Shown here: one piece after another, positions 36,556-41,200 of the stretch
Layout: each line of letters opens with the position of its first letter
Numbering within the stretch: position 1 is the stretch's first letter
Virus record (IMG/VR): IMGVR_UViG_3300045988_151019
Reading direction: 5' to 3' (one strand)
From: a virus
Lineage: Duplodnaviria; Heunggongvirae; Uroviricota; Caudoviricetes
DNA length: 52,849 bases
Notes under the pieces: model-generated
What the model was told of the DNA's origin: nothing
What the model saw: only the letters and a program-made list of their open reading frames with translations
Databases searched by the model: none
Program-made: the position numbers and the translations under genes

Positions 36556-37065
36556 ATGGGGCACAATAACACTAAGGGAAACCGTAAATTTATTAAGGGC
36601 CGCTATACTGCCAACGCGGCCAAAGGCGAACGACTGGTATCTTCTGAATTCCAGCTCACTTTTGCAGGCCATGAAGATATCAGCGTACTGGTTCGCACGT
36701 CGCAAATTCCTGAAATGACCCGCGAGGATGTGGAGGACTATGGTCCGAATGGTGTGAAGTTCAACCAGCACGGTCCAATTCGAAACTCTGGGGAAATCCA
36801 GGTCCAGTGCGTGGAGACTATCGAAGGCGATATTCTTCAGTTCATTAAAGATCGCATTGCGGCGAAGGACTATGTTGATATCACGATGGCTGCGACCCCT
36901 GAATCCAAATCTTCCGGGGTTAACGCTGTGACAAAAGCTGCTACAACAATTGAAATGTTGGACTGCAAAATCTACAGTGATGCAATCGACTTTAGTACCG
37001 AAGATGTGACTGCCGCTGTGCGCCCGTCACTTCGTATCGTCTACAACTGGATTGAGTGGGATTAA
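36556..37065 (+). CDS. tail tube protein candidate
   Basis: 169 aa; size and C-terminal IVYNWIEWD resemble myovirus tube proteins. Confidence 0.45.
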   Translation: MGHNNTKGNRKFIKGRYTANAAKGERLVSSEFQLTFAGHEDISVLVRTSQIPEMTREDVEDYGPNGVKFNQHGPIRNSGEIQVQCVETIEGDILQFIKDRIAAKDYVDITMAATPESKSSGVNAVTKAATTIEMLDCKIYSDAIDFSTEDVTAAVRPSLRIVYNWIEWD

Positions 37066-37084
37066 GAGTCATCCCTTGTATTTT

Positions 37085-37107
37085 AAAGCTCCTTCGGGAG
37101 CTTTTTT
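37085..37107. terminator. bidirectional terminator AAAGCTCC-ttcg-GGAGCTTT + T-run
   Basis: Read directly; serves the convergent structural operon and hok mRNA. Confidence 0.55.
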
Positions 37108-37181
37108 ATTTGGAGAGGAAAGGGTGCATTGAGGATACCTGACACACGAAGAGTGGCGGAGATCTCTCCCCGCCAGGTCTC

Positions 37182-37337
37182 TTACCTTTCAGATTCGTAG
37201 GCTGTGAAGACAGTGACCTCCGTCTGGCTGGTTCGGATTCGTACCTCGCAGAGGTCTTTCCTCGTTACCAGTGCCGTCACAATGACGGTTAAACAGATGA
37301 CGATCAGAGCGATTAACATCGCTTTTTGCTGCTTCAT
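37182..37337 (-). CDS. hok: Hok/Gef-family type I toxin (51 aa)
   Basis: MKQQKAMLIALIVICLTVIVTALVTRKDLCEVRIRTSQTEVTVFTAYESER, near-identical to chromosomal HokC/Gef and HokD/RelF as I recall them. Confidence 0.85.
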   Translation of the reverse strand: MKQQKAMLIALIVICLTVIVTALVTRKDLCEVRIRTSQTEVTVFTAYESER

Positions 37338-37395
37338 AGCCTGCTTCTCCTTGACCTTTTGGTCGGTAAGAGGCTAATCTACGTATGCTAAGCAT
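37189..37395 (-). CDS. mok: Mok-like overlapping reading frame (modulation of killing)
   Basis: 68-aa ORF overlapping hok in another frame, as in hok/mok/sok loci. Confidence 0.5.
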   Translation of the reverse strand: MLSIRRLASYRPKGQGEAGYEAAKSDVNRSDRHLFNRHCDGTGNEERPLRGTNPNQPDGGHCLHSLRI

Positions 37396-37450
37396 AGATA
37401 TGGCCTCAGATTAATGTTAAGCGTCTTGCAGGACGCGTAATGTTATCTGG
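37349..37450 (+). ncRNA. putative Sok-like antisense RNA and its promoter (boundaries approximate)
   Basis: Plus-strand TTGACC-18 nt-TAATCT promoter at 37349-37377, antisense to the mok start region. Confidence 0.3.
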
Positions 37451-37518
37451 GGCTTTCTTCTATCTGCTTTTCGGGTAATGCCTGAAGCAGATAGCCTCAA
37501 GCACCCGCAACGATTGTA

Positions 37519-37764
37519 TCAATGTCTGGCTTTTTTTCTATAGAAATCACCTGGAAGGGTGAATATCCACATCAGAAGAAATGTTGCAGCAAACATGATC
37601 CCTAATGGCCAGACCGCGCCAAAGAAAATCCATACTAAGATCTTCTCTGCTTGTTCTTTGCGGTCGATATCGACAAGCATTTTTCGGCTGATCATGTATA
37701 CACAGAAGCCAATACAAACATATCCTGCAAAAGCGATCGCTAACTGTAAAAAATCAGATTGCAT
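37519..37764 (-). CDS. small two-helix membrane protein downstream of repL (start ATG at 37764)
   Basis: ORF track frame 37519-37845; two hydrophobic helices. Confidence 0.4.
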   Translation of the reverse strand: MQSDFLQLAIAFAGYVCIGFCVYMISRKMLVDIDRKEQAEKILVWIFFGAVWPLGIMFAATFLLMWIFTLPGDFYRKKARH

Positions 37765-37814
37765 CTCCGACCTCAAACTGAAAACGCCAGGTAACTCCAG
37801 ATTAGAGCAATCTA

Positions 37815-40909: not shown

Positions 40910-41200
40910 TTACGGCCTCGTAAGTTGATAAACAACCTGCGACCCGCTGCTAAACAGGTGGCAGGACGTGACGGGGTTAGCAGACTGGCACTTACGAAAC
41001 CAGCAGGCCGAAGCCTCCCCATCACGCCCCACCATAATTCGGGCGTAACGTGGTTTACGGACACAAAAATACCGCAATATCGGAAATCTGCGGTTGTCCG
41101 CGTAAGTATTCAGGCTGCTAAACCCGGTCGCAGAATTTGCTACGACGGCGGAACTATAAGCCTGAACGATTAAAAGGTCAATATGATGCGAAAAGATAGC
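40910..41200 (-). ncRNA. immI leader region expected to hold the c4 antisense RNA and its target repeats (boundaries not resolved)
   Basis: No protein-coding signal; repeated GCTGCTAAAC at 40946 and 41113; sits between operator and icd. Confidence 0.3.

Follow-up and report, generated by a model that had tools for sequence, protein, structure and literature searches.

The minus strand between positions 37085 and 37540 of the window, as we call the whole stretch of 52,849 nucleotides that was analysed, holds a complete hok/mok/sok type I toxin-antitoxin locus of the hokW/hokD lineage, carried by a P1-like phage-plasmid. Its features, from the promoter to the 3' end of the toxin mRNA, are as follows.

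37540 to 37513, minus strand: hok/mok mRNA promoter, sigma-70-like, TAGAAA and TACAAT separated by 16 nt, with a TG extension (promoter scan).
37085-37506, minus strand: inferred full-length hok mRNA, about 400-420 nt (fold; putative 3' end).
37495-37506, minus strand: tac, the 5' end of the mRNA, GGGUGCUUGAGG (pairs with 37122-37134 in the minimum free energy, or MFE, fold).
37387-37457, plus strand: Sok antisense RNA, about 71 nt (alignment to the annotated 71-nt sokW of phage 933W).
37189-37395, minus strand: mok frame, 68 aa (ORF list; GAGG Shine-Dalgarno sequence 8 nt upstream of the ATG).
37351-37380, plus strand: predicted sok promoter, -35 TTGACC at 37351-37356, 18-nt spacer, -10 TAATCT at 37375-37380 (by eye).
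37365-37372, minus strand: ucb box within the conserved AGCCUCUUACC motif (pairs with 37179-37186).
37182-37337, minus strand: hok toxin gene, 51 aa, MKQQKAMLIALIVICLTVIVTALVTRKDLCEVRIRTSQTEVTVFTAYESER (ORF list, Pfam, PHROG, alignment to HokW).
37179-37186, minus strand: dcb box, overlapping the hok stop codon (fold; helix 8).
37155-37175, minus strand: GC-rich hairpin between the hok stop and fbi, GGCGGGGAGAGAUCUCCGCC (fold; helix 18).
37122-37134, minus strand: fbi, CCUCAAUGCACCC, the fold-back partner of tac (fold; helix 1 of the alignment).
37085-37104, no strand assigned: hairpin terminator of bplB, likely also a weak 3' end for hok (plus-strand terminator scan).

The 51-aa Hok/Gef toxin frame that the sequence-only reading had recognised was borne out by profile searches. 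The Pfam model HOK_GEF (PF01848) matched over its full length (model positions 1-42 of 42) with 73.1 bits against a cut-off of 22 (E = 1.3e-20), and PHROG 251, "MokW-like host killing", matched with E = 4e-31; the NCBIfam Hok models scored under their cut-offs on the same peptide. Members of the family are hydrophobic Hok/Gef peptides of about 50 aa with an N-terminal transmembrane helix and a TRKxLCE motif, and the Hok of the window fits this description. Its TRKDLCEV stretch is invariant across 29 aligned homologues, and an alignment with HokW of phage 933W showed 46 of the 51 residues to be identical. The scores of these tools rule out that the hok/mok/sok match arose by chance. RefSeq names the window-type gene "type I toxin-antitoxin system toxin HokD", and in the Punavirus P1 record MH422554 the same gene is labelled MokW; the HokD label fits the peptide, not the regulatory architecture. 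By analogy with the 90%-identical HokW and its sokW, Hok would be expected to be toxic and Sok protective, with a stable mRNA and an unstable Sok. The hok region was also encountered on two very short non-enterobacterial contigs, one of 275 bp from Acinetobacter idrijaensis (98.9% identical to window positions 37051-37325, the end of bplB included) and one of 431 bp from Xanthomonas pisi, both of which are likely assembly contamination.

The hok promoter lies 7 nt upstream of the first base of the Rfam model, and transcription would start at the G at 37506. Rfam model RF01794 ("sok") matched positions 37332-37506 as a full model with 114.9 bits (gathering score 59, E = 1.7e-25), a higher score than the 87.2 bits of the R1-type IncFII locus. 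This match lies on the hok-sense strand, where it covers the 175 nt between 37506 and the start codon of hok, and it marks the leader in which sok is embedded, i.e., the region rather than the Sok strand. The Sok gene itself was placed by alignment: the 71-nt sokW of 933W aligns to 37391-37456 with 92.5% identity, which was extrapolated to 37387-37457. The RNA is complementary to the ribosome-binding site and start codon of mok, and it is predicted to form a long hairpin at about 37402-37454 (-26.6 to -32 kcal/mol) followed by a short U-rich stretch (CUUUCUUCU). A cis-encoded antisense RNA of about 65-70 nt directed against the mok initiation region, which is a feature of the family, was in this way identified from sequence. 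Of the antisense promoter put forward earlier as plausible, the gene that it would serve stands; the promoter hexamers were found by eye only, at a position that agrees with the 5' end of the annotated sokW, and the automatic stringent promoter scan of the window did not call them. A terminator had also been claimed, and the hairpin at 37085-37104 is indeed present; for bplB, on the plus strand, it is a clear terminator, whereas for hok it is only a weak one. It is the only hairpin after fbi, so that the hok mRNA would meet the bplB terminator in reverse, and its U tract as read on the minus strand is only UUU. At 37410-37445, within the Sok hairpin, the hokW/hokD lineage (the window included) carries about 18 extra nt (GCGUCCUGCAAGACGC plus flanks), giving a longer Sok/target hairpin; the extension is absent from the short-leader lineages (e.g., loci L021-L026, Photorhabdus, and Erwinia) and from the Rfam consensus.

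The overlapping Mok frame of the earlier reading was likewise confirmed. The mok frame, +1 relative to hok, opens 58 nt ahead of the hok ATG and closes 7 nt short of the stop codon of hok; having its own ribosome-binding site and spanning the hok start, it shows the translational coupling arrangement of the family. The mok start codon of the window aligns with the mok start in 28 other hok loci. Across the 29 aligned loci, mok was found in frame with hok in 20 (including 933W), in the +1 frame in 3, and as a 19-aa form that ends at the hok start in 6. The +1 loci are those of the window and a Kluyvera P1-like element, each with 68 aa, and a third with 55 aa. In the R1-type IncFII locus that was fetched for comparison, mok is in frame with hok; R1 itself presumably has the +1 arrangement. 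A one-base difference in the GGTCAAGG stretch sets the mok frame of the window apart from that of the hokW locus. Since the mok frame varies across the family, the frame is not a defining feature, and the +1 arrangement is not evidence of decay.

Folding the mRNA in search of tac and fbi, as had been proposed by the sequence-only reading, returned the expected closure. The mRNA from 37506 to 37085 has an MFE of -164.9 kcal/mol (z = -8.78 compared with dinucleotide shuffles), and in this fold tac and fbi form 12 bp, the molecule being closed by its first 12 nt. Conservation of the structure was assessed with 47 hok loci from Escherichia, Shigella, Kluyvera, Citrobacter, Photorhabdus, Pantoea, Erwinia, and others, 36 of which were tested for tac-fbi pairing and 29 of which were aligned. 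Of the 36 loci, 34 had a tac-fbi duplex of -17.9 kcal/mol or lower; the partner of tac invariably lay 340-385 nt further downstream, and the duplex contained compensated changes, e.g., GGGUGC/GCACCC to GGGCGC/GCGCCC. When the MFE structure of the window was mapped onto the 29 homologues, 85.7% of cells were paired, as against 39-45% with the partners slid by 1-3 columns, a control that somewhat favours the structure since the latter was derived from one of the aligned sequences. Changes on both sides were found in 43 pairs of this 29-sequence alignment, and the covariation score was 0.170 compared with 0.06-0.09 for the slid controls; none of 500 shuffles reached 0.170. Among the individual helices, tac-fbi (helix 1) was 91% paired over the 29 loci, with U-A changed to C-G in 9 sequences and other two-sided changes, ucb-dcb (helix 8) was 90.9% paired, and the GC-rich hairpin (helix 18) was 87.7% paired, 4 of its pairs having changed at both positions. 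For tac-fbi, the Sok hairpin, and the 3' GC hairpin, the two-sided changes are free of the bias of the slid control. The sequence and RNA-structure elements of the locus are, in sum, present and conserved. MFE folding of 3'-truncated mRNAs gave a local 5' hairpin, not the tac-ucb switch of the R1 model. The GC-rich hairpin at 37155-37175 also nearly matches the 10-bp target duplication (GGATCTCTCC) made by IS186B in pSvP1 (PMC6906374), and the exact 10-mer occurs in the Kluyvera P1-like relative; an insertion in this hairpin would sever fbi from hok.

The element that carries the locus is a P1-like phage-plasmid (Punavirus). Its repL is 98-99% identical to those of P1 and P7, and its gene order is that of P1, with c4 RNA, icd/ant, kilA, and repL followed by bplB, pmgG, and genes 21 and 22, which are convergent. 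Rfam searches found the C4 antisense RNA with its a1/b1 target and three tRNA genes (window positions 18494-20720 and 40954-41159), as expected of a P1-like genome, and C1-operator matches with up to 3 mismatches numbered 9 compared with 0.34 expected. One full-length relative, which shares a 1-kb region with the window at 100% identity, is a plasmid of 96.5 kb that carries repA, parAB, and phd/doc. In that relative, phd/doc lies just outside the span of the window, by colinearity about 3 kb beyond the window start, and a tblastn search of the window with Phd and Doc sequences gave no match. The flanks of the hok cassette are colinear with P1, and the segment between them comprises the following features.

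37108-37800, no strand assigned: segment in place of rlfA-rlfB-pmgF of P1 and P7 (boundaries of P1/P7 homology).
37519-37764, minus strand: ORF81, an 81-aa predicted membrane protein (PHROG 3772; 81 aa in RefSeq; two hydrophobic segments).
37795-37811, minus strand: remnant of the C1 operator Orlf, with the 11-nt core ATTGCTCTAAT (37811-37801) retained (comparison with P1).

That canonical P1 has no hok at this position had been supposed in the sequence-only reading, together with a suggestion to compare the P1 and P7 references, and the comparison agreed with it: both phages hold rlfA-rlfB-pmgF between repL and bplB. P1 homology breaks off at 37107, immediately beyond the bplB terminator, and is picked up again at 37801, the window having 693 bp for 1826 bp of P1. 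The suggestion of a variable accessory insertion was correct in so far as the region is variable, but the event was an allelic replacement rather than a simple insertion. Published comparisons count rlfA-rlfB-pmgF among eight regions that vary in P1-like plasmids (PMC9603915), a further report likewise describes it as variable (PMC6906374), and its replacement has already been noted in print. The replacing segment consists of two parts, the hok/sok unit (37122-37518), which is 87-91% identical to the hok loci of Rac and Stx phages, and ORF81. The latter matched PHROG 3772, a family of unassigned function, over residues 1-81 of 81 (E = 5e-54), and searches of Pfam and NCBIfam gave nothing significant. 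ORF81 occurs only in P1-like phages, always directly after repL in alleles that are not of the P1 type; the 108-aa version given in the ORF list is lengthened at its upstream end and runs into repL.

The right junction of the replacement falls inside Orlf, the last 6 nt of which differ from P1. The remnant is not among the 9 C1-operator matches with up to 3 mismatches, and P1's own Orlf fits the C1 consensus just one position better; as judged from its sequence, the hok/sok-ORF81 cassette may still be under C1 control. An ORF81 promoter at the remnant was considered and rejected, as a -10-like TCTAAT was found with no convincing -35 by eye. A search for a mobile-element signature around the cassette gave only short two-copy repeats and no composition break. 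Neither flanking repeats nor composition offered evidence of transposition, and we assume that the cassette arose by homologous or illegitimate replacement. The hok/sok unit is bracketed at 37120-37129 and 37555-37564 by a direct repeat of 10 nt, AAGGGTG[C/A]AT, which may have served as microhomology in the replacement or may be there by chance.

Nor is the hok form an unusual accessory, as the distribution of alleles shows. Among the 507 PLSDB plasmids with a P1-type repL, the bplB-hok/sok-ORF81-repL allele was the commonest (206 plasmids), compared with 99 plasmids that have the P1-type rlfA-rlfB-pmgF allele and at least 83 that have a third allele, typified by phage 673R5. Of 5426 complete E. 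coli genomes, 188 have the hok arrangement, as do six phage records, one of them "Punavirus P1" MH422554. The arrangement is intact at 99% identity or more in the 206 plasmids and 188 E. coli genomes, a near-total conservation that, among plasmids that are themselves about 99% identical, carries little weight as a sign of selection. The locus is already known at the level of annotation, since hundreds of sequenced plasmid records carry it. Its discovery value is little, the family being a textbook one and the exact locus annotated already.

The sibling alleles (673R5, RCS47, and the more diverged SJ46) keep the hok promoter, leader, sok, and mok start, equivalent to window positions 37369-37634. 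RF01794 matched the leaders of 673R5 (89.7 bits; locus L005, 3429-3603) and RCS47 (68.5 bits; locus L004, 3430-3603) over a stretch equivalent to about 37369-37506 of the window; SJ46, which keeps 37369-37634 at 81% identity, gave no Rfam match that passed the threshold. In the sibling alleles the sequence starting at the hok ATG, with the toxin gene and fbi, is swapped for an oppositely oriented 210-aa ORF; a profile search of this ORF yielded no more than a GNAT hint below threshold. The Sok region of the window recurs with 100% identity in 673R5, but the -35 there has been replaced. A toxin-less leader is understandable only as a remnant, and the hok allele is therefore probably ancestral to the toxin-less siblings. 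The orphan sok of these alleles looks like an antitoxin alone and might possibly act as an anti-addiction device; the sok-only alleles offer a cheap, testable lead on anti-addiction between competing phage-plasmids.

In the paradigm of the family, hok/sok of plasmid R1, the mRNA is stable and locks itself, it is activated by 3' trimming, and a labile antisense RNA blocks mok, with participation of RNase III. We take the molecular mechanism of the window locus from this paradigm, by analogy but with high confidence; transcription, RNA processing, toxicity, and biological role at this locus are inferred. The weak constitutive promoter at 37540-37513 would give rise to a stable mRNA of about 400 nt, in which tac at the 5' end would be locked to fbi at the 3' end, so that neither ribosomes nor Sok could act on the full-length molecule. 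Slow 3' trimming would remove fbi, upon which the mRNA would refold and expose the mok ribosome-binding site. While the cell keeps the plasmid, Sok, a short-lived RNA of 71 nt, would pair with the mok site and block translation of mok, and hence of the coupled hok, and the duplex of Sok and mRNA would be cut by RNase III. If the plasmid were lost, or sok transcription stopped, Sok would decay first, and Hok would be made, insert into the inner membrane, and kill the cell.

Sequence by itself does not decide among post-segregational killing, abortive infection, and lysis as the role of this locus, and the candidate roles are not mutually exclusive. We rank addiction first, an aid to lysis as the serious rival, and defence and an inert passenger as minor alternatives. 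Taken as a whole, the locus is best explained as a complete hok/mok/sok module whose likeliest role is post-segregational killing that stabilises a low-copy plasmid prophage, most likely alongside phd/doc; we put the probability of this reading at roughly 0.8. The setting of the full-length relative, with repA, parAB, and phd/doc, is one in which such modules stabilise inheritance, and it counts in favour of addiction. Counting against it, relatives that already have partition genes and phd/doc are not obviously in need of a second addiction module, and the closest tested homologue, hokW-sokW, was shown to accelerate lysis and double phage release upon induction rather than to confer stability. 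Weighing on the explanation as a whole are the weak minus-strand terminator after fbi, the local 5' hairpin formed by truncated mRNAs in place of the tac-ucb switch, and the shift of the mok frame relative to hokW. A literature search for a functional study of hok/sok in a P1-like element found none, and one for hokW/sokW found the Sp5 study only.

These results from the homologue are the ground for the serious rival, in which the same module would serve as a helper of lysis and release: induction would remove Sok, Hok would precede holin and endolysin and damage the membrane, and progeny would be released earlier or in larger number. Such a function was shown experimentally for hokW-sokW in prophage Sp5, where induction makes sokW disappear, HokW is present about 1 h ahead of endolysin, and deletion halves phage release (PMC8621323). 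The 933W copy of that locus, which bears the sokW annotation, is 87.6% identical to the locus of the window. In addition, the C1-repressed kilA-repL unit and ORF81 immediately precede hok in the same orientation, and hok converges with sok; therefore, read-through upon induction could suppress sok. However, the experimental support comes by analogy from outside P1-like elements, and the idea of read-through is purely inferential, with a weak terminator-like site detected by the scan inside ORF81. P1 moreover has an elaborate lysis control of its own (lydA-E, lyz), and canonical P1 and P7 manage without hok. We regard the helper function as a tentative possibility, clearly less probable than addiction. 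A broader version would have the cassette wired both into the lysis-lysogeny switch, with read-through from kilA-repL-ORF81 silencing Sok and freeing Hok as an early lysis aid, and into plasmid competition, with sok-only alleles displacing incompatible hok-bearing relatives unkilled; this combination appears improbable to us.

A defence by abortive infection is, in our estimate, a little less credible still. Here a superinfecting lytic phage would stop host transcription, Sok would decay, and Hok would kill the cell before the invader matured. R1 hok/sok modestly excludes T4, with a loss of 42% in plating efficiency and of about 85% in plaque size (summarised in PMC8621323), and it is in variable regions like the repL-bplB site that accessory cargo gathers in P1-like plasmids (PMC9603915). 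However, the effect on T4 was modest and was obtained from a high-copy plasmid, whereas P1-like plasmids are about single-copy, and nothing in the hok/sok locus is specific to defence. The weakest alternative is that the locus is now without function, a selfish or decaying passenger comparable to several of the chromosomal hok loci in E. coli K-12. Siblings without the hok gene persist at the same site in at least 83 plasmids and the toxin is therefore dispensable for the element, but all the parts that regulation and toxicity require are intact in the window and the allele is the commonest, so that we consider this reading very unlikely.

The distribution of the locus has practical consequences. 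The laboratory reference P1 represents a minority type at the repL-bplB site, and about 40% of sequenced P1-like plasmids have a second, RNA-based addiction or lysis module adjoining the lytic replicon. Work on the engineering, stability, induction, or displacement of P1-like phage-plasmids must reckon with the hok/sok module, which matters the more because these elements also carry resistance genes.

The nearest known system is hokW-mokW-sokW of the lambdoid Stx phages (933W, Sp5/VT2-Sakai), with 87.6% nucleotide identity over 37122-37509. In Sp5 it is a working type I toxin-antitoxin system, in which the toxic, inner-membrane HokW is neutralised by sokW RNA, partly via RNase III and Hfq (PMC8621323). 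It shares with the window a 71-nt Sok with the extended hairpin and the layout of tac, fbi, ucb, and dcb. However, its host is an integrated lambdoid prophage whereas that of the window is a plasmid prophage, the flanking genes are unrelated, and mokW is in frame with hokW whereas the mok of the window is shifted to +1 by the 1-nt difference.

The hok/mok/sok system of R1 (the parB locus), the paradigm of the family, has the same parts in the same order as the window. The R1-type IncFII locus has a tac of GGCGCUUGAGGC and an fbi AAGCGCC near its 3' end; its mok and hok start at nt 112 and 169 of the mRNA, compared with 112 and 170 in the window. Both loci match RF01794, although their mRNAs have only about 52% nucleotide identity; at the protein level, HokW is about 44% identical to R1 Hok (PMC8621323). 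The two also differ in that the Sok hairpin of the window is about 18 nt longer than the R1 type and in that R1 has a strong terminator hairpin after fbi, whereas the nearest hairpin in the window is the bplB terminator read backwards.

Two chromosomal E. coli loci (L011 and L014) encode a Hok that probably corresponds to HokD of the K-12 Qin prophage (relF), whose sequence it matches; this peptide differs from the Hok of the window at 4 of 51 residues. The K-12 hokD is reported by Pedersen and Gerdes (1999) to have neither mok nor sok nor the fold-back elements, as relBE lies upstream; the locus of the window has them all. Finally, phd/doc, the classical addiction module of P1, has the same presumed job as hok/sok, i.e., the killing of plasmid-free segregants, but it is a type II protein-protein system with neither sequence nor mechanistic kinship to hok/sok.
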